NCBI GenBank assembly: GCA_002716745.1
Contig: PBBW01000001.1
Span: 1 to 54,189 of the forward strand
From: Gammaproteobacteria bacterium
GTDB taxonomy: Bacteria > Pseudomonadota > Gammaproteobacteria > Magnimaribacterales > TMED112
Direction of reading: 5' to 3'
DNA: 54,189 nucleotides
Shown here piece after piece: positions 30,443 through 38,300 of this stretch (position 1 is the first letter of the stretch; every line of letters starts with the position of its first letter). Under the pieces are notes generated by a model. That model was not told the DNA's origin. It was given only the letters and a program-made list of their open reading frames with translations, and searched no databases. A program made the translations under genes and the position numbers.

Positions 30443-31238
30443 TTGGTATAAATCACATCTAGAAAATATCAAGGAAATAAAACCTAAATCTATTTTTTAT
30501 TCCTCTTATGGGGGGAGCTTAGAAGCAGTCCTTCAACAAATCATAAAATCAGAACTGTCAAAAGGCTTTAATTTAAAAATCAAAGACAATGCTTTGCTTT
30601 CCGAAATTGCATCTCCGAACTTTTTTTATCTTTCGAGATCTGAAGAAAAAAAAATTATCACATTAGAGCAAATTAGATCTGCTAAAGATTTTTTACTACT
30701 TAAAACAAACAAAAAAAAATACCTTTATATAGATGGTGGGCAGCATATTAGAATAAATGGCTATAATGCTTTGCTCAAAATTGCCGAGGAATCAGATGAC
30801 TCTGTAAATATTTGGATTATGACGAACTCCCTTGCATCAATACCAACTACAATTTTAAGTCGATTTCATAAAGTACGTTTTCCATCTCCAACCCAGCATG
30901 AAATCAAAACATTCCTTGAAAGTCGAAGCATTAATTATGATAGAGAAATACTTAGGTTTCTTTCAGAAAACCCTGCATTGCTTGAGGAGAATGATTCTAT
31001 TGAGCTGTTAAATAGTTTTAATAGTCTGGTTGAAAAGAAAGACATTTATCAAGTCGACAACAATAAGCTTGCACTCCTTGTTGATTATTTAATTTATCTA
31101 GCAAAGCAAGACATAAAAGAAAAACCTAAAAGAGCCTTTAAAAGCTTAGATATATTGTTAGATGTGAAAAAATGCTTATCTTTACCAAATAATCTAAGTC
31201 TTGATGTAATAAAACTAAGAATTAATTCTAGTCTCTAG
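30435..31238 (+). CDS. holB: DNA polymerase III delta-prime subunit (divergent and short)
   Basis: NALLKIAEES and TILSRFHKVRF correspond to the NALLKTLEEP and SRC motifs. Lies after tmk. Confidence 0.65.
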   Translation: MFSWYKSHLENIKEIKPKSIFYSSYGGSLEAVLQQIIKSELSKGFNLKIKDNALLSEIASPNFFYLSRSEEKKIITLEQIRSAKDFLLLKTNKKKYLYIDGGQHIRINGYNALLKIAEESDDSVNIWIMTNSLASIPTTILSRFHKVRFPSPTQHEIKTFLESRSINYDREILRFLSENPALLEENDSIELLNSFNSLVEKKDIYQVDNNKLALLVDYLIYLAKQDIKEKPKRAFKSLDILLDVKKCLSLPNNLSLDVIKLRINSSL

Positions 31239-32730
31239 AGGGTCTTGGAAAAAAATTATTTTCTTGCTCAAAACTAAAAGCAAAATTTATAATTTTTGCC
31301 TCCTCCCATGCTCCACCTAAAAAAGAAACCCCTACTGGAAGCCCATTTACAAAGTCTAGCGGGATGGTAATGTGAGGATAGCCTGCAACAGCAGAGAGCC
31401 CCCCATTTCCAAAACTTAGCCCTCCGTTGCTTGTTCTGGAGTCACCATTAATATGATCTGTTTTCCAGACAGGATTTCTTGTAAGGCCAACGAGAGCATC
31501 CAAACCATTCTCTAAAATCAATGTATCAATCTGGTTCCTTGCTCGTGTAACTACTAGATCTCTCGATTTAATATATCTTTCTTTATCGGTTGCTTGAATA
31601 CTATCTAAAAAGATTTCGTGACCAAAATGCTTAAGAACTTTTTCTGAATTTTCTTTATTAAAATCTATTAAGTCATTAAGGCTTTTTCGCATTGAATTTG
31701 AACTCTTCAAATATTTTTCTATACCCTCATGAAATTCATAGAGAAGTAAATAATATTCATCTTCGAATTTATAATCACTAACAACTTCAAAACTAACCCT
31801 TTGGACGTTTGCACCCAACTTTTCAAGAATTCTTTGGGTTTTATTTAAAAGTTTTACTTCGACATCAGACATTTCATCTTTGATAAGTAGGCCAATATTT
31901 TTATTTTCAAGTGACTGGTTGGTTAAATTGATTAATGCATCATAATCATAATCATCTGGGATATTTTTTGTGGCAGAATCTTTCGGATCGTAACCTGATA
32001 TTGCTTTAAGCACTTTTGCTGCTTCTAAAACACTTCTTGCCATTGGTCCTGCTGTATCCTGAGTTGCCGAAATGGGAATAATTCCATCTCTACTAACCAG
32101 ACCAACTGTGGGTTTAATCCCAACCACTCCATTGCTTGAAGCAGGGCAACTAATTGATCCATTTGTTTCCGTGCCTATCGCGAGTGGAACAAGACCTTCA
32201 GCAACGGCAGCAGCACTTCCTGAGCTTGATCCACAGGGGTTATATTCTAGATTGTAGGGGTTATTGGTTTGTCCTCCAAAGCTTGACCATCCACTCGAGG
32301 ACGGATTTCCTCTAAAATTTGCCCATTCAGATAAATTTGCCTTACCAACAACCACTAGACCTGCTTTTTTCAATTTAGATACTATTTGCGAATCATTTCT
32401 TGGAAGATTGTTTAGTAAAGCTAGGGATCCAGCTGTATTCGGAAGACCAACAGAATCGATATTGTCCTTAATTAATATCGGAACTCCATTTAATCCAAGT
32501 TGATCTGCGTTGACATATTCAAACTTTAGATCAGATGATGAGTATAAAGAAATTATAGAGTTTACTGCACTATCATTAGCTTCCAAATAATCAATGTAGG
32601 AGAAGTATAATTCTTCGAGATTATCAGAGGAGTTTACAAGTTCGTTAAATTCTTTTGTTGAGAGATCTTTAAAATCATCAGCAGAATAAACAATTAAGGA
32701 AAAAAAGAGAAAAAGGGTTTTAAATTTCAT
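31228..32730 (-). CDS. Secreted amidase-signature (AS) family amidase
   Basis: Signal peptide and AS family motifs ([12 protein letters not shown]-like [22 protein letters not shown]). Confidence 0.8.
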
Positions 32731-32816: not shown

Positions 32817-33050
32817 TTAACAGCCTCTAAATGCGGTTTTTCTTCCCTTCCTAACTTCTCTAGGATTCAAGAAGCCATCTTTATCTTTGTCAGCAATATT
32901 GAAAAGGCTTAGGTTGAGCTCACAACCTTGGAGCCTTATTTCTTCCGGAGAGATTTTACCATCTCCATTGCTATCAAATTTAGCCATTCTGTCATCAGCC
33001 ACTGCTAAAGATGAAACAGCTAGTAAAAAGTAAAACGTAAAATTTTTCAT
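32817..33050 (-). CDS. Small secreted protein with two EF-hand calcium-binding loops
   Basis: Signal peptide plus DSNGDGKISPEE and DKDKDGFLNPRE loops. Confidence 0.7.
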   Translation of the reverse strand: MKNFTFYFLLAVSSLAVADDRMAKFDSNGDGKISPEEIRLQGCELNLSLFNIADKDKDGFLNPREVRKGRKTAFRGC

Positions 33051-33187: not shown

Positions 33188-34414
33188 TTACTCAAATTCA
33201 GGGTAAGCTTCTACTCCAATTTCTTCTGAATCCAAACCTTTTTTCTGGATTTCATCTGAAGATCTTACTGGAGAGACCATATTCACAAGGAATAGGAATG
33301 CGTAAGTTAAAACAAATCCCCAAACTAGTATGGAAGCAACACCAAGTGCTTGAGCACCAAAGGTAGCCTCAGAGTTTGTAAATGGAACAACCATTACACC
33401 AAAGATTCCTGCTGTTCCGTGAGCAGAAATGGCTCCCACAGGATCATCTATCTTCAATACTTGCTCTAGAAGAACTAGCGATCCATAACAAAGTAAACCA
33501 CCTATTGCTCCAATAAGGACAGCTTCATAGCCAGAAGGTGTATCAGGAGCCGCTGTAATAGCTACTAATCCTGAAATGGCTCCATTCAAAGCATAAATGA
33601 TATTGGTTTTTCCAAAAAATATTCTTGATACTAATAAACAAGCAATTACACCGCCTGATGCTGCCATATTTGTATTCAGGAAGACTTGAGCAACAGCATT
33701 GGCATTACTTGCATCGTTAACAGCTAATTGAGACCCTCCATTGAATCCAAACCAACCCAACCAAAGGATGAATGTACCAAGCGCTGCTATCGGAATATTT
33801 GAGCCATAGAGTTTATTAACTCCACCGCTTGATGAATATTTTCCTACTCTAGGCCCAATAAATATTGCAGCTGCTAATGCACATGCTGCTCCTGCTAAGT
33901 GAACTGTTCCTGAGCCTGCAAAGTCTGAATAACCTGCTGCATTCAGAAAACCTGAACCCCAGTTCCAAAAACCTTGTATTGGATAAATCACACCTGCAAT
34001 AAATGCTGCAAGGGCAAAGAAAGGCCATTGATTCATTCTCTCTGCAATTGCACCTGAAACTATTGAAACTGCTGTTGCAACAAAAACTACTTGAAAGAAG
34101 AAGTCAGCTGCATCTGCATACCCTAGATCTTCATTCATTCCAAAATCTTCTTGTCCATTAAGCCCAAATCCAAAATCGTATGGTGGTATAATTCCACCTG
34201 CATTTGCTCCAGGATACATGACCATAAAGCCACACAAGAGGTACATGAAACAAGCAATTGAATATAACCCAATATTTTTGGTTACAATTTCAGCAGTATT
34301 TCTTCTTCTAACGAATCCAGCTTCAAGCATTGTAAAGCCCGCAGCCATCCACATTACCAATGCACCTGTCATTAACAAGTAAAAGGTATTTAACGCGTAA
34401 TCTATTTCAGCCAT
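33188..34414 (-). CDS. amtB: Ammonium transporter, Amt family
   Basis: Polytopic membrane protein with Amt signatures (DFAGSGTVH, GWFGFNGGS, AISAHGTAGI). Confidence 0.95.
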   Translation of the reverse strand: MAEIDYALNTFYLLMTGALVMWMAAGFTMLEAGFVRRRNTAEIVTKNIGLYSIACFMYLLCGFMVMYPGANAGGIIPPYDFGFGLNGQEDFGMNEDLGYADAADFFFQVVFVATAVSIVSGAIAERMNQWPFFALAAFIAGVIYPIQGFWNWGSGFLNAAGYSDFAGSGTVHLAGAACALAAAIFIGPRVGKYSSSGGVNKLYGSNIPIAALGTFILWLGWFGFNGGSQLAVNDASNANAVAQVFLNTNMAASGGVIACLLVSRIFFGKTNIIYALNGAISGLVAITAAPDTPSGYEAVLIGAIGGLLCYGSLVLLEQVLKIDDPVGAISAHGTAGIFGVMVVPFTNSEATFGAQALGVASILVWGFVLTYAFLFLVNMVSPVRSSDEIQKKGLDSEEIGVEAYPEFE

Positions 34415-34423
34415 AATGTCTCC

Positions 34424-35023
34424 TTAAAAAGATGCTCCGACAGTAAAAAACAATCCATCTTCATCTTCTAATCCTGATGCATCTTCTGCTGTAAAAGAGC
34501 TGTAATTAATTGAAGCATCGTAATCACCTAGTGAAAAACCGTATCCTAGAAGGAAATTGCTTCCAGTATCCTCATAATCTCCATAGGAAACTGAAAAATC
34601 TCCAACCCCATAAGATATATCATAGTAATCACCAAATTCATCGCCTACGTAATAGGTAAAGCCTAATCCAGAATATGAAAGACCGATATAAGTCTCAGAG
34701 AAATCTGCACTCGGTGAGACTTCCGGATATGCATAATTGATGTATCCTACATCAAAACCAAGACCACCCTCAGTTTCACCTGCATACCCAAAATATGTAT
34801 CGAGCTCTAATCCAGCTCCGCCAAATGCAACATTTGATCCCCAAGTTCCAGCATAAAAGCCGCTCTCAGAGCTATAATCAAAACCACCACTGTAACCGGG
34901 AGCATCCATAGTCTGAGTCATCCCTCTCCAGAAGTAGTTTGATGAAAAAGTAAAGTTTGAAGAAACCTCTCCAAATACATTTAATGTCAAGAAAATGACA
35001 ATTGTCATAATTCCTTTTTTCAT
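34424..35023 (-). CDS. Small outer-membrane beta-barrel protein (TorF/TIGR02001-like putative porin) co-transcribed with amtB
   Basis: Signal peptide, Gly/Tyr/Phe-rich alternating strands, and a C-terminal ...GASF. This family is commonly adjacent to nitrogen transport genes. Confidence 0.6.
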   Translation of the reverse strand: MKKGIMTIVIFLTLNVFGEVSSNFTFSSNYFWRGMTQTMDAPGYSGGFDYSSESGFYAGTWGSNVAFGGAGLELDTYFGYAGETEGGLGFDVGYINYAYPEVSPSADFSETYIGLSYSGLGFTYYVGDEFGDYYDISYGVGDFSVSYGDYEDTGSNFLLGYGFSLGDYDASINYSSFTAEDASGLEDEDGLFFTVGASF

Positions 35024-35088
35024 AAAATCTCCTTAAAAAAATAAGTGTGATAAGAATGAAAAGGATTAAACCCTACATAGTTTTGTAG

Positions 35089-35140
35089 CCGCGTTCCTTC
35101 AGCTTTCGCTTACTTCCGTCCTCTACTGAGGATGAACGAT
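35089..35140 (-). ncRNA. Glutamine riboswitch aptamer (glnA RNA motif type) in the leader of the porin-amtB operon
   Basis: Minus-strand RNA is AUCGUUCAUCCUCAGUAGAGGACGGAAGUAAGCGAAAGCUGAAGGAACGCGG. P1 is CGUUC/GAACG, the hairpin is UCCUC-AGUA-GAGGA, the conserved core is ACGGAAGUA, and a short GAAA-capped stem precedes the conserved GAAGGAACGCG. Confidence 0.75.
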
Positions 35141-35150
35141 TTAGACGCTG

Positions 35151-35226
35151 CCCCTTTATAGCCATGGAGAATGGTTTAACTTTTAACCCATGTTATATGG
35201 GCTCCTTTTAACCCATGGAGTATGGG
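35151..35226 (-). ncRNA. Array of three contiguous ~25-nt hairpin/pseudoknot modules (candidate novel structured leader element)
   Basis: Minus-strand modules are CCCAU-ACUCC-AUGGG-UUAAAA-GGAG, CCCAU-AUAAC-AUGGG-UUAAAA-GUUA and CCAU-UCUCC-AUGG-CUAUAAA-GGGG. In each, 4 nt of the loop are complementary to the 4 nt after the A-rich linker. Confidence 0.4.
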
Positions 35227-35274
35227 GATGTAAACATCTTCTTTATAAACACTATTTATAAATCTTCATAATCA

Positions 35275-35303
35275 AAACTAATGCCTAAGAATAAAAAAGT
35301 CAA
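35275..35303 (-). promoter_or_regulatory. Candidate sigma-70 promoter for the leader/porin/amtB transcript (TTGACT-17 nt-TAGTTT)
   Basis: Hexamers and spacing read on the minus strand. AT-rich context makes chance matches likely. Confidence 0.25.
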
Positions 35304-35313
35304 GTAAAAAAAA

Positions 35314-35321
35314 TGTATAAT
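35314..35321 (+). promoter_or_regulatory. Candidate extended -10 element (TGTATAAT) for gltBD
   Basis: TGnTATAAT match about 33 nt upstream of the gltB ATG, with a weak -35. Confidence 0.3.
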
Positions 35322-35353
35322 CAAATATAAGGGCAATTATATTAAAAGTATCC

Positions 35354-38300
35354 ATGAGTAATAAACCATCACATAAAGACAATTGCGGTACAGGGGTAAT
35401 ATTCAGTAAAACAAACACTCCTAGCAATTCCATAATTTTTCGCTCATTGCTATCACTCTCTAAAATGAAACACAGAGGAGCTGTTAGTCACGACGGAGAG
35501 ACTCCAGATGGCTGTGGAATTTTGATTGATTTAGATAGAAAATTTTTTCAAAAAGTTCTGCTGGATGAACAAAAAATAATTCTTCCCTCAAACTTTGCCG
35601 TAGGTGTTTTTTTTGTAAATAATCAATTCAATTTCTATGAAACCATTGAAAAAATTTGTAATGAACACGACGTTGATATAATCGCTAAAAGAGAGATAAA
35701 TACCGATAAAAAACTTTTAGGAAATGTTGCTGCAAAATCATGCCCTTCAATTTATCAATTGTTTGTAAAGCCAAAAAAAGAGGAGAGTGGTGGCCTTGAA
35801 ATAAATCTTTACAAAATAAAGAAATTGGTAGATAAAAAGTTTAATCCAGAAAACGAAATTTATTGTGTGAGTCTCTCTTCTCAAACAATAGTTTATAAAG
35901 GGCTAGTTCAACCAAAAAATTTCTCCAAGTTTTATACAGATTTGTCCACTAAGGAGCATGTTTCAGCATCTGCTGTGTTCCATATTAGATTCTCTACAAA
36001 TACCTCTCCAAAATGGCACCTTGCCCAGCCATATAGGGTCCTCGCACACAATGGTGAGATTAATACTATTTCAGGTAATCGTAACTGGGCTCACGCAAGG
36101 ACTAAAATCTTCTCATCAGATAAACTAGGAAATTTAAATGCTTATGAGCCGCTTATAGGTCAGACAGGTTCTGACTCATCCTCACTAGACCATATTTTGG
36201 ATCTTTTTACGAATGGAGGAATAAATATTGGGAGGGCAGCAAGAATGCTTATACCCCCCTCGTGGCAAAATACTGATTTAATGGATGCTGATGAAAAGGC
36301 TTTCCATGAATACAATTCCATGCACATGGAAGCCTGGGATGGTCCAGCCTTTGTATGTTATCAAAACAAGGATTTTACATCGTGCTTTCTAGATAGAAAT
36401 GGGTTAAGACCAGCAAGAATTGAAATTTTTGATGATGATACTGTTAGCGTTGCTTCTGAGGTAGGCTCAAACTATATAGATGATGTTAAACCCATTAATA
36501 CAGGAAGACTTGGGCCAGGAGGCTTACTTCTTTTTGATAGAAAAAATATAAATCTCCTTTTGGATGAGGACGTAGATAAAATGCTTTCAAAAAGCAATCC
36601 ATACAGAGAGTGGTTAAAACAAAAGTCAAAACATCTTGAAGCTAACCTTCATGAGTACTCGGGACCACAAATGAGAGAGATTTCAGACGCATACTTCAAT
36701 GATTCGGCAAAGACATTTCAACTTTCACAAGAAGAAATAAATACTTTGTTTCAATATTCTGAACATGGTGGGGAGCCTACTGGATCAATGGGGGATGATA
36801 CTCCAATTGCACCTTTAAGTAATAAAATCAGGTCAATTTATGATTATTGTCGCCAAAGATTTGCCCAAGTTACTAACCCACCAATTGACTCATTACGGGA
36901 AAAATCTGCAATGTCATTGGAAACATGTATAGGTCCAGAATTAAATATTTTTCAAGAGACCTCAGAACATGCTGAGAGAATTGTGGTTAACTCTCCAATC
37001 TTATCTCATAAAAAATTTAACCTACTGATTAAGAATAAAAAATTTAAAACTTCTCGTTTTTCATTGGAGTACGATCGAAGCGAACAGCTTGAAGATGCAA
37101 TGAAAAATTTACTCACTGAAATTATAAATTCAGTCCAGAGCGGATGCAGCATTATAGTGCTAGATGAAAAGCAAACAACAAAAAATAAACCAGTTATTAA
37201 TGCATTATTAATGACTTCAGCACTTCATCATGAATTAATAGAAAAAAATCTTCGTGTTAAGGCAAACATTATTGTGAATACTGCTTCCGCTAGAGATAAC
37301 CACCAAATAGCTTGCTTAATTGGCTTTGGTGCAACCTGTGTACATCCGTGGCTTGGGCTTCAAACTATCCTGAAACAGTCTCATAAATCTAGGACGGATT
37401 TTTCAACATCGGAATTGTGTGTGTCGTACAGAAAGTCACTAAATAAAGGTTTATTAAAAATTATGTCAAAAATGGGCATCTCTAACGTTTCAAGCTATAG
37501 AGGAGCTGGTCTTTTTGAGGTGGTTGGCCTATCTGATAAGATAAATAACATCTGCTTCCCCAAAAATTTCTCATACATAAAGGGCGAGTGTTTTCAGGAC
37601 TTTCATGCAAAAGCTTTAGCAGTTATTGATTGTAATGTAGACGATAATATTATTGCTAAGGGTCTTCATAAATATGTTCATGGTGGTGAACAACATGCGT
37701 ACAACCCAGATACAGTTACAAGCCTTCAGAACTCTTTAAAAAATAATTCATTCAAGGAATTTAGAAAATTTACATCCACAATCGATAATAGAACCCCTCT
37801 TGCCGTTAGGGATTTTTTTGAGTTTCGTTCCAACAAACCATCAATAAATGTAAATGATGTCGAACCTATTGAATCAATTCTGAAAAGATTCGATTCAGCA
37901 GGAATGAGTTTAGGGTCATTATCTCCAAAAGCACATGAGACCTTAGCTGCTGCAATGAATGGGCTTGGATGTAGATCTAATTCAGGTGAGGGTGGTGAAG
38001 ATGTAAAAAGGTATGGCACTAATATCGAGTCTAAAATCAAACAAGTTGCATCTGGAAGATTTGGAGTCACACCTAATTATTTAGCAAATGCAGAAGTTAT
38101 ACAAATTAAAATTGCCCAAGGTGCTAAGCCTGGTGAGGGTGGGCAGCTTCCTGGATCAAAAGTGGACTCCTACATCGCTGGACTTCGTTATTCTAAACCT
38201 GGAATTACATTAATTTCTCCCCCGCCACACCATGATATTTATTCAATAGAGGATCTAGCCCAATTAATATTTGACTTAAAAGAGGTCAATCCAAAGGCTA

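Follow-up and report, generated by a model that had tools for sequence, protein, structure and literature searches.

The preQ1-I riboswitch, which occurs in 5′ untranslated regions (UTRs) beside the ribosome-binding site and of which tandem copies exist, has a first stem (P1) of 5 base pairs (bp), whose minor groove accommodates an A-rich 3′ loop; its short second stem (P2) is formed from the 3′ tail. The −1 frameshifting pseudoknots of luteoviruses, of the beet western yellows virus (BWYV), pea enation mosaic virus (PEMV) and sugarcane yellow leaf virus (ScYLV) type, combine a 5-bp stem 1 (S1), a loop 1 (L1) of 1–2 nucleotides (nt), a stem 2 (S2) of 3–4 bp and an A-rich loop 3 (L3) of 6–7 nt with a minor-groove triplex. 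Autogenous operators, among them the T4 gene 32 pseudoknot and the leaders of rpsO and the alpha operon, are 5′-UTR pseudoknots near the ribosome-binding site that serve small basic nucleic-acid-binding proteins. Type III antitoxin RNAs consist of units of about 34–45 nt. A type III locus is recognized by a repeat array followed by a Rho-independent terminator and a gene for an endoribonuclease of the ToxN, CptN or TenpN family (PMC5086642), and a pseudoknot repeated two to three times has been described as the STAXI motif (Weinberg et al. 2010; PMC2864571). Here we analyze an array of three tandem modules, A, B and C, located on the minus strand of a 54,189-nt stretch of gammaproteobacterial DNA (hereafter, the window; GenBank assembly GCA_002716745.1, contig PBBW01000001.1) from the SAR86 clade. 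The array precedes a glutamine riboswitch in the leader of an operon encoding a putative porin and the ammonium transporter AmtB.

In each module the loop of a hairpin is complementary to the 3′ tail:

35202..35226, minus strand: pseudoknot module A, with S1 CCCAU/AUGGG, loop ACUCC, linker UUAAAA and tail GGAG

35177..35201, minus strand: pseudoknot module B, with S1 CCCAU/AUGGG, loop AUAAC, linker UUAAAA and tail GUUA

35151..35175, minus strand: pseudoknot module C, with S1 ACCAU/AUGGC, loop UCUCC, linker UAUAAA and tail GGGG

The minus-strand sequences given for 35226-35151 in a preliminary description of this DNA match ours letter for letter, and the loop:tail pairs are those it had named: CUCC:GGAG in A, UAAC:GUUA in B and CUCC:GGGG, with one G·U pair, in C. 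Its parse of module C (a 4-bp stem and a 7-nt linker) is equivalent to ours and is refined here to a 5-position stem and a 6-nt linker; drawn in this way, all three modules are 25 nt long, with a single spacer A at 35176 between modules B and C. The outer S1 pair of module C is an A·C mismatch in the window only and A–U in most orthologues, in most of which the module reads ACCAU ACUCC AUGGU AAAAAA GGAG. The spacer between the end of the array and the glutamine aptamer is 10 nt long (35150-35141), as had been reported. For modules A, B and C, nearest-neighbour estimates are −4.4, −4.4 and −2.0 kcal/mol for S1 and −3.7, +0.2 and −2.8 kcal/mol for the S2 duplex.

The sequence CCAT-N5-ATGG occurs three times in the 54-kb window, always within the array, compared with a shuffle mean of 0.7. 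A generic scan of the window for any 5-bp stem with a 4-bp loop–tail pairing returned five matches against a shuffle mean of 2.2, and such a shape is thus not rare alone; the signal is therefore carried not by any single module but by their tandem order, common sequence and conservation. Repetitive extragenic palindromic (REP) sequences and bacterial interspersed mosaic elements (BIMEs) are dispersed in many copies per genome, vary in presence at orthologous sites and form inverted clusters; by contrast, the 54-kb window contains a single array, which recurs at the orthologous position in 15 SAR86 species-level genomes and is always built of direct repeats.

Relatives of the array came from a scan of viral contigs with CCCATNNNNNATGGGNNAAAA that was meant as a null distribution. 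Most of its 135 matches were due to chance; six paired perfectly in the register of the preliminary description, and all six proved to be tandem arrays of like units. In later patterns, the only fixed positions were CAU, CAUG, the A run and G22, and S2 and the outer S1 pairs were free to vary. Scans with these patterns yielded ~35 viral loci and 88 metagenome loci with 32 distinct arrays, the metagenome pattern having been built to exclude the SAR86 amtB array, and chance matches to the family patterns lacked module structure or pairing. The arrays comprise 2–4 units of constant design, and modules were never found singly in the 1.9 Mb of sequence examined.

Pairing within the modules is maintained through extensive sequence change. 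Among 35 distinct modules, 95.9% of the cells are paired, compared with 71.8% after shuffling (0 of 500 shuffles reach the observed value) and 27–35% when the register is slid; for 71 distinct modules the respective values are 96.1%, 71.5% and 27–34%. All four Watson–Crick types occur at the two middle pairs of S2 among the 71 modules, the outer S1 pairs are CG, GC, UA, AU or UG, and the second S1 pair is CG, GC or UA. Double changes separate orthologous arrays (AAGUC/GACU to AAGAC/GUCU; UCAGC/GCUG to UCAUC/GAUG), and in one module the core C–G pair is swapped to G–C (UCGAU..AUCGG). The inner S1 pairs CAU/AUG are nearly invariant, and S2 begins with an invariant C–G pair beside S1. The constant positions are C3, A4, U5, C10, A11, U12, G13, A20, A21 and G22; the single nucleotide of L1 is unconserved, with A, U, G and C all found.

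The modules are thus very probably compact H-type pseudoknots (S1 of 5 bp, L1 of 1 nt, S2 of 3–4 bp, L2 of 0 nt and an A-rich L3 of 6 nt) that form an uncatalogued family. The proposal of a selected H-type pseudoknot, made originally from the three modules of the window, gains its support from the covariation over the 71 distinct modules from SAR86, phages and metagenomes, and the statement that the element matches no known RNA family agrees with our Rfam 15 scans of the window and related loci. A cmscan of window positions 34950-35420 at E<=10 returned noise only (for example, BMV3_UPD-PK1 at 13.4 bits versus 38), a phage array gave no match at the same threshold, and at E<=1 none of the matches in SAR11, Dadabacteria-labelled and phage loci fell on the arrays. 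No description of the motif was found in the literature searched: a 2009 survey of Pelagibacter RNAs reported other motifs in other contexts, and the sole paper found on SAR86 and glutamine riboswitches concerns deletions. A search of cultured phages with two phage array regions (blastn, distant mode) produced no match.

All arrays found outside SAR86 occupy predicted 5′ UTRs, pointing in the same direction as the next gene and ending 10–26 nt before the Shine–Dalgarno sequence and ATG of an open reading frame (ORF) for a very basic protein of 29–67 amino acids (aa); this arrangement is seen at ~120 independent loci, all upstream of small basic-protein genes. For the chromosomal arrays, host taxonomy was inferred from the names of neighbouring proteins. 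These arrays occur in Pelagibacteraceae, including Ca. Pelagibacter sp. HIMB109, and in ~1.05 Mb, ~30% G+C contigs from metagenome-assembled genomes labelled Dadabacteria or Thermodesulfobacteriota. In one SAR11 gene family (E-type loci), the sequence TTGACA-18-TAGAAT ends 6–7 nt before the first module, so the array is the predicted 5′ end of the mRNA there. In uncultured marine phages, the major head gene (phrog_1005) is followed by a G+C-rich hairpin, the array and a basic ORF of 29–33 aa, as seen in L170 (9247-10431), L047, L135 and other loci. As read from the sequences, several phages have a last module whose tail overlaps with the 5′ strand of a small hairpin carrying the Shine–Dalgarno sequence. 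Because the module family almost always occurs without a riboswitch, before small basic-protein genes, it appears to be an independent element that SAR86 has combined with a riboswitch.

The proteins encoded downstream fall into at least two unrelated families. The ‘ALRxYQK’ family (alignment A3) includes phage proteins of 29–35 aa, proteins of 46–67 aa from the Dadabacteria-labelled contigs and SAR11 proteins of 48 aa (type MFYKDF..ALRQIRK..). The second family (alignment A2) consists of SAR11 and phage proteins of 63–67 aa (type ..HLLNEFSRK..GNGTSGY..NAGK..) and comprises 1,688 clusters at 90% identity. Searches of the small proteins against Pfam, NCBIfam, PHROGs and PADLOC gave no match, and a profile search with the A-D family returned 27 clusters, none of them named. 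In SAR11-like genomes, the members of both families have conserved chromosomal positions and are each preceded by a two-module array (L286, 6001-6147, from HIMB109; L249, L206 and L274, beside rlmN; L234, 4341-4487). Gene callers sometimes stretch the SAR11 48-aa ORF upstream through the second module (..THSHELKGVT..; P0219, P0229, P0230, P0234); these extensions look like annotation artefacts because the frame differs between relatives. Transfer RNA genes lie directly upstream of the array in a bacterial-type locus (L204, 7149-7220), and a cluster of three precedes it in a phage-like locus (L203, 3199-3440).

In the window, the array is part of a longer leader, whose other features, followed by the operon genes, are:

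35298..35303, minus strand: predicted −35 hexamer TTGACT, of which TTGAC is kept in 15/15 SAR86 leaders, assigned by conservation

35275..35280, minus strand: predicted −10 hexamer TAGTTT, separated from the −35 by a 17-nt spacer, likewise assigned by conservation alone

35242..35262: perfect A/T palindrome TTATAAA-N5-TTTATAA, also ATA-N9-TAT, between the predicted promoter and module A

35088..35140, minus strand: glutamine riboswitch aptamer RF01739 (69.1 bits against a gathering threshold of 35, E=2.4e-13, model positions 1-53 of 53)

35034-35029 and 35023-35021, minus strand: Shine–Dalgarno sequence AAGGAG and start codon of the Gcw_chp gene

34424-35023, minus strand: putative porin of the Gcw_chp/TorF family (PF09694; named ‘TorF family putative porin [SAR86]’)

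33188-34414, minus strand: ammonium transporter AmtB (PF00909), in the same operon as the porin (33188..35023)

For comparison, the porin was used as a query in a genome scan, which identified 13 SAR86 loci with 64–90% amino-acid identity; a metagenome contig added one more at 61%, and the SAR86 comparison covers 15 loci. The order of array, riboswitch and ribosome-binding site is common to all of them. A sigma70-like promoter, TTGAC-17-TAnnTT, lies ~45–75 nt upstream of module A in 15/15 loci; in the window the implied transcription start is predicted near 35268, ~43 nt upstream of module A, and the SAR86 array would begin about 30–50 nt inside the predicted transcript. Together with the co-orientation of every array with its downstream gene, the promoter in the 15 SAR86 loci backs the earlier suggestion that the functional molecule is the minus-strand RNA. 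The single G·U pair of module C, which had been offered as evidence for that strand, is of little weight, since wobble and A·C counts at the outer S1 pair are mixed across the family.

The array is the best-conserved stretch of the SAR86 leader, whereas the riboswitch stems covary. The loops and tails of modules A and B are constant in SAR86 but for a single substitution, A to U in the loop of B, which extends the pairing; by this measure almost every base of the array is under constraint. The compensatory difference between modules A and B, prominent in the preliminary description, has no echo among these orthologues, which, as the array is nearly invariant, yield no covariation and neither confirm nor refute the loop–tail pairing.

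Sister lineages carry the same operon (51–58% identity) behind leaders of other types. A canonical sigma54 promoter, TTGGCAC-N5-TTGC, without the array is found in L022-L027 and L035-L037, and three tandem glutamine riboswitches are found in L028-L030 and L033; more distant gammaproteobacteria (L013, L014) have a sigma54 promoter with NtrC-like sites. As the sister leaders hold either a sigma54 promoter or three glutamine riboswitches, this leader position appears to be a site of nitrogen control, at which the SAR86 clade of the window uses three pseudoknots and one aptamer. One operon is thus seen with three interchangeable nitrogen-control solutions across lineages. The control elements of the sister lineages lie ~130–500 nt upstream of the Gcw_chp start codon, and glnK, present within the porin-amtB operon in most of them, is absent from the lineage of the window.

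In addition to the loop–tail pairing, segments of the SAR86 array are complementary to sequences that follow the aptamer. RNAalifold, applied to 12 leaders, joins GUUAAACC to GGUUUGAC and AAAAGG to CCUUUU; extended by eye, the pairing comprises four colinear, antiparallel helices. Their 3′ partners are a conserved post-aptamer element and the Shine–Dalgarno region:

35059..35081, minus strand: conserved post-aptamer element ACUAUG..GGUUUAAUCCUUUU, a colinear antiparallel complement to segments of the array

35166-35161 with 35081-35076: helix between the module C 3′ arm, CAUGG(U/C), and ACUAUG

35180-35173 with 35072-35065: helix between GUUAAACC, spanning the B tail, the spacer and the start of C, and GGUUUAAU

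35209-35204 with 35064-35059: helix between AAAAGG, of the A linker and tail, and CCUUUU

35224-35217 with 35032-35026: helix between CAU.CUCC, of the A arm and loop, and GGAGAU(G) in the Shine–Dalgarno region

The 8-bp GUUAAACC helix is intact in 12/12 sequences, with five one-sided changes that are all wobble-compatible. In the triple-riboswitch lineage (L028-L030, L033), GUUAAAC and GUUUGAC are adjacent and form a local 7-bp hairpin (−5.4 kcal/mol) 4–26 nt after the last aptamer; in the lineage of the window, the same two heptamers bracket module C and the aptamer. This hairpin is independent support for the proposed long-range helix. The B tail is shared by its own pseudoknot and the GUUAAACC helix, which would account both for the divergence of module B from the other two and for the absence of drift in the array. 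In the post-aptamer sequence CUAUG.., an AUG or GUG ~15–20 nt after the aptamer (35076-35078 in the window, and in orthologues) opens a mini-ORF of 1–4 codons, which reads AUG UAG in the window and AUG AAG GUU UGA or UAG in orthologues; its stop is kept through different codons across lineages, and there is no Shine–Dalgarno sequence nearby.

We favour, with a probability of roughly 35–40%, a model in which the array would be a multivalent RNA operator for a shared trans-acting factor and, in SAR86, also part of a switch wired to the riboswitch. The arrays would be bound by this factor, which would set translation or stability; the likeliest candidate is one of the small basic ‘ALRxYQK’-family proteins encoded downstream of the arrays. 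The operator reading is suggested by the exclusive association, outside SAR86, with small basic-protein genes, by the multivalency, by the use that phages make of the arrays and by a location that is either 5′-terminal or adjacent to the ribosome-binding site. In SAR86, transcription from the sigma70-like promoter would make the array the 5′ portion of the porin-amtB leader, and the array would be integrated into the expression platform of the glutamine riboswitch. When folded, the pseudoknots would hide CAU.CUCC and AAAAGG in module A, GUUAAACC across modules B and C, and CAUGG in module C; once exposed, these segments could pair, colinearly, with the post-aptamer element and the Shine–Dalgarno region. 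Because the hidden segments are complementary to that region, stabilization of the pseudoknots would keep the ribosome-binding site open. Conversely, if the pseudoknots were lost, or if glutamine closed aptamer P1, the long-range ‘panhandle’ would be favoured and the operon turned off; shut-off by glutamine is the polarity expected for amtB.

Several observations weigh against this model. Alignments A2 and A3 are unrelated (hhalign probability 0.07), and with two unrelated protein families behind the arrays, a scheme in which the downstream protein simply regulates its own gene cannot apply to both. A hidden Markov model search of the six-frame ORFs of the window for a homologue of the phage small proteins found none below E=0.18; the gene of neither family was found in the 54-kb window, and none was assignable to SAR86. 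In contrast to the arrays in all other contexts, that of SAR86 is ~120 nt away from the ribosome-binding site, and it does not form the 5′ end. As to the long-range helices, they lack double-sided covariation because their 5′ strand is invariant, and the structure was derived from the same sequences; the energy of the whole duplex between the array and the 3′ flank is no better than that of shuffles (p about 0.16), and, with G·U pairs allowed, chance alone should give about one 8-bp match for two stretches of 70 nt. Finally, outside SAR86 the constancy of CAU/AUG, C10, A20-21 and G22 is partly imposed by the search patterns; the same positions are constant in third and fourth modules that no pattern touched.

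An alternative that we consider unlikely, and the first to be weighed, is that the modules are tandem mini-aptamers, each binding a small ligand or ion, perhaps a nitrogen signal, and together providing a cooperative second input beside glutamine. Their architecture resembles that of the smallest known aptamers, such as preQ1-I with its 5-bp P1 and A-rich L3. Mini-ykkC offers a precedent, as it was later reported to bind a ligand. This small repetitive motif was once thought to be protein-binding (PMC2864571). The glutamine-II/Downstream-peptide motif also precedes small ORFs and occurs in marine metagenomes; SAR86 sister lineages have three glutamine aptamers where the lineage of the window has three pseudoknots and one aptamer; and the hairpin that the last tail overlaps in several phage arrays sequesters the Shine–Dalgarno sequence. 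On the other hand, the modules have no L2, a 1-nt unconserved L1 and no obvious pocket, their conserved positions are accounted for by the helices and A-minor contacts while S2 varies freely, no Rfam riboswitch model matches them, and the downstream genes give no clue to a ligand.

About as improbable is a passive role, in which mechanically stable pseudoknots at or near the mRNA 5′ end, with no specific partner, would shield the transcript from 5′-end-dependent decay or from RNase E scanning, restrict the loading of Rho, or insulate co-transcriptional riboswitch folding. Such a role would suit the many arrays that start at the predicted +1 or directly after a phage terminator or processing hairpin, as well as the compact triplex-type units, whose number varies from two to four without a change in design; luteoviral pseudoknots of the compact triplex type are very stable. 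It leaves unexplained, however, why ~120 loci lie upstream of small basic-protein genes and why each base of the SAR86 array is held constant next to covarying riboswitch stems, and the SAR86 array is not at the 5′ end.

We judge it highly doubtful that the repeats are an RNA antidote of the type III toxin–antitoxin kind that sequesters the small basic protein, with the SAR86 copy acting as a decoy or sensor, for example for phage proteins. Type III antitoxins are indeed tandem H-type pseudoknot repeats upstream of the protein they bind, and phage pseudo-antitoxin arrays have been described (PMC5086642), and the phages analyzed here carry both arrays and small proteins. Nevertheless, these proteins match no ToxN, CptN, TenpN, PADLOC, Pfam or NCBIfam model and, at 29–67 aa, are not nuclease-sized; no terminator separates the array from the gene; the fixed chromosomal positions in SAR11 and the 1,688 protein clusters are unlike mobile loci; and the SAR86 array has no adjacent small ORF.

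Least probable of all is action as DNA, with the CCCAT-N5-ATGGG palindromes as operators for a gltB/amtB regulator or with a sigma54 promoter (TGGC-N9-GGCA) in module C: three 15-bp palindromes at 25–26 bp spacing in a divergent nitrogen-gene intergenic region, the GG-N10-GC spacing in module C, and the NtrC-like sites and canonical TGGCA-N6-TTGCA of related non-SAR86 operons speak for it, but loop–tail covariation is meaningless for double-stranded DNA sites, in other taxa the arrays always point the same way as the gene that follows and often lie downstream of the promoter, and 25-bp spacing places successive sites on opposite faces of the helix, so a DNA operator is unlikely. The sigma54 promoter in module C was rejected as a candidate: by comparison with TGGCAC-N5-TTGCW at −24/−12 its −12 element is poor, and in L011, L012 and L032, in which module C and the aptamer are just 2–3 nt apart, transcription would have to begin within aptamer P1. 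Mini-ORFs within the modules (AUG GGU UAA, with an SD-like GGAG 10 nt before the AUG of B) were discarded as inconsistent across modules and taxa. CsrA-type GGA hairpins on the plus strand were also set aside, since only modules A and C qualify and the orientation of the family and the A-rich L3 favour the minus strand.

The A/T palindrome between the predicted promoter and module A is kept in most SAR86 orthologues, 0–17 nt from module A. Because this distance varies, it is treated as a separate element, possibly a DNA operator that serves both divergent promoters, of gltB and of amtB, or else a piece of the leader. The intergenic region 35024-35353 parts two divergent units, gltB on the plus strand, with five of five glutamate-synthase domains present, and the porin-amtB operon on the minus strand. 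On the plus strand, TGTATAAT at 35314-35321, seen in the window only, resembles an extended −10 element 33 nt upstream of the gltB start codon; it stands back-to-back with the predicted amtB −35, and the gltB and amtB promoters would overlap. A 77-aa EF-hand protein and an amidase-family protein (32817-33050 and 31228-32730) are encoded 3′ of amtB on the same strand, and their genes may share a nitrogen-related transcription unit with amtB.

SAR11 and SAR86, which rank among Earth's most abundant organisms, possess few transcription factors. The presence of an uncatalogued structured-RNA motif in SAR11, SAR86, another phylum and phages points to a missing layer of post-transcriptional control. 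We tentatively propose that the arrays could be the RNA half of an unrecognized post-transcriptional regulon of streamlined marine bacteria (SAR11, SAR86 and Dadabacteria-like), copied by phages; they would act as sites for ‘ALRxYQK’ proteins or as tandem mini-riboswitches, and in SAR86 as a two-signal gate on ammonium uptake. The arrays also offer a way into two orphan protein families whose members are very small; one of these families has >1,600 clusters. For the shut-off of genes such as amtB by glutamine riboswitches, a mechanism not addressed in the literature searched, the layout of array, aptamer and anti-array offers a concrete testable model. The 25-nt unit is among the smallest natural pseudoknot designs with rich covariation and should be useful for RNA folding studies and synthetic biology.

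Compared with the described systems, the arrays come close to the type III antitoxin RNAs ToxI, CptI and AntiQ in being tandem direct repeats of H-type pseudoknots with an A-rich loop, in lying upstream of a protein gene on the same strand and in being carried by phages, and they share a single-base L1 with CptI (PMC5086642). The modules are shorter, at 25 nt, and the downstream context differs: in the window the array is followed by the riboswitch and porin-amtB in place of a terminator and toxin gene, and elsewhere by a Shine–Dalgarno sequence and an ORF of 29–67 aa without a PADLOC, Pfam, NCBIfam or PHROG match. STAXI repeats are found near DNA-manipulating genes, such as those for Ssb, topoisomerases, antirestriction proteins or integrases, and were proposed to act possibly as single-stranded DNA, whereas the arrays here differ in taxa and gene context, with gltB, porin-amtB or small basic ORFs as neighbours, and have no match in Rfam (STAXI model included if present).

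With preQ1-I, the modules have in common the 5-bp first stem, the A-rich 3′ loop, the short second stem formed by the tail and the 5′-UTR placement. In preQ1-I, however, an L2 of ~6 nt holds a ligand-recognizing C and P2 usually contains the Shine–Dalgarno sequence; in the modules L1 is variable and L2 is absent, C10 being followed directly by the S1 3′ strand in 71/71 modules, and RF00522 gave no match. The dimensions of the modules are almost identical to those of luteoviral pseudoknots. The latter lie inside ORFs, 5–8 nt after a slippery X XXY YYZ heptamer, whereas the modules stand in tandem in untranslated leaders, between a stop codon or promoter and the next ribosome-binding site, with no conserved slippery site and no conserved ORF running through them. 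Ribosomal-protein leaders have been listed (PMC2704228); relative to autogenous operators, the arrays described here differ in their repeat architecture, their link to a riboswitch and the two unrelated protein families that follow them. The array is a bacterial and phage 5′-UTR pseudoknot element that constitutes its own sequence family, with an unusual tandem design and an unusual fusion to a riboswitch.

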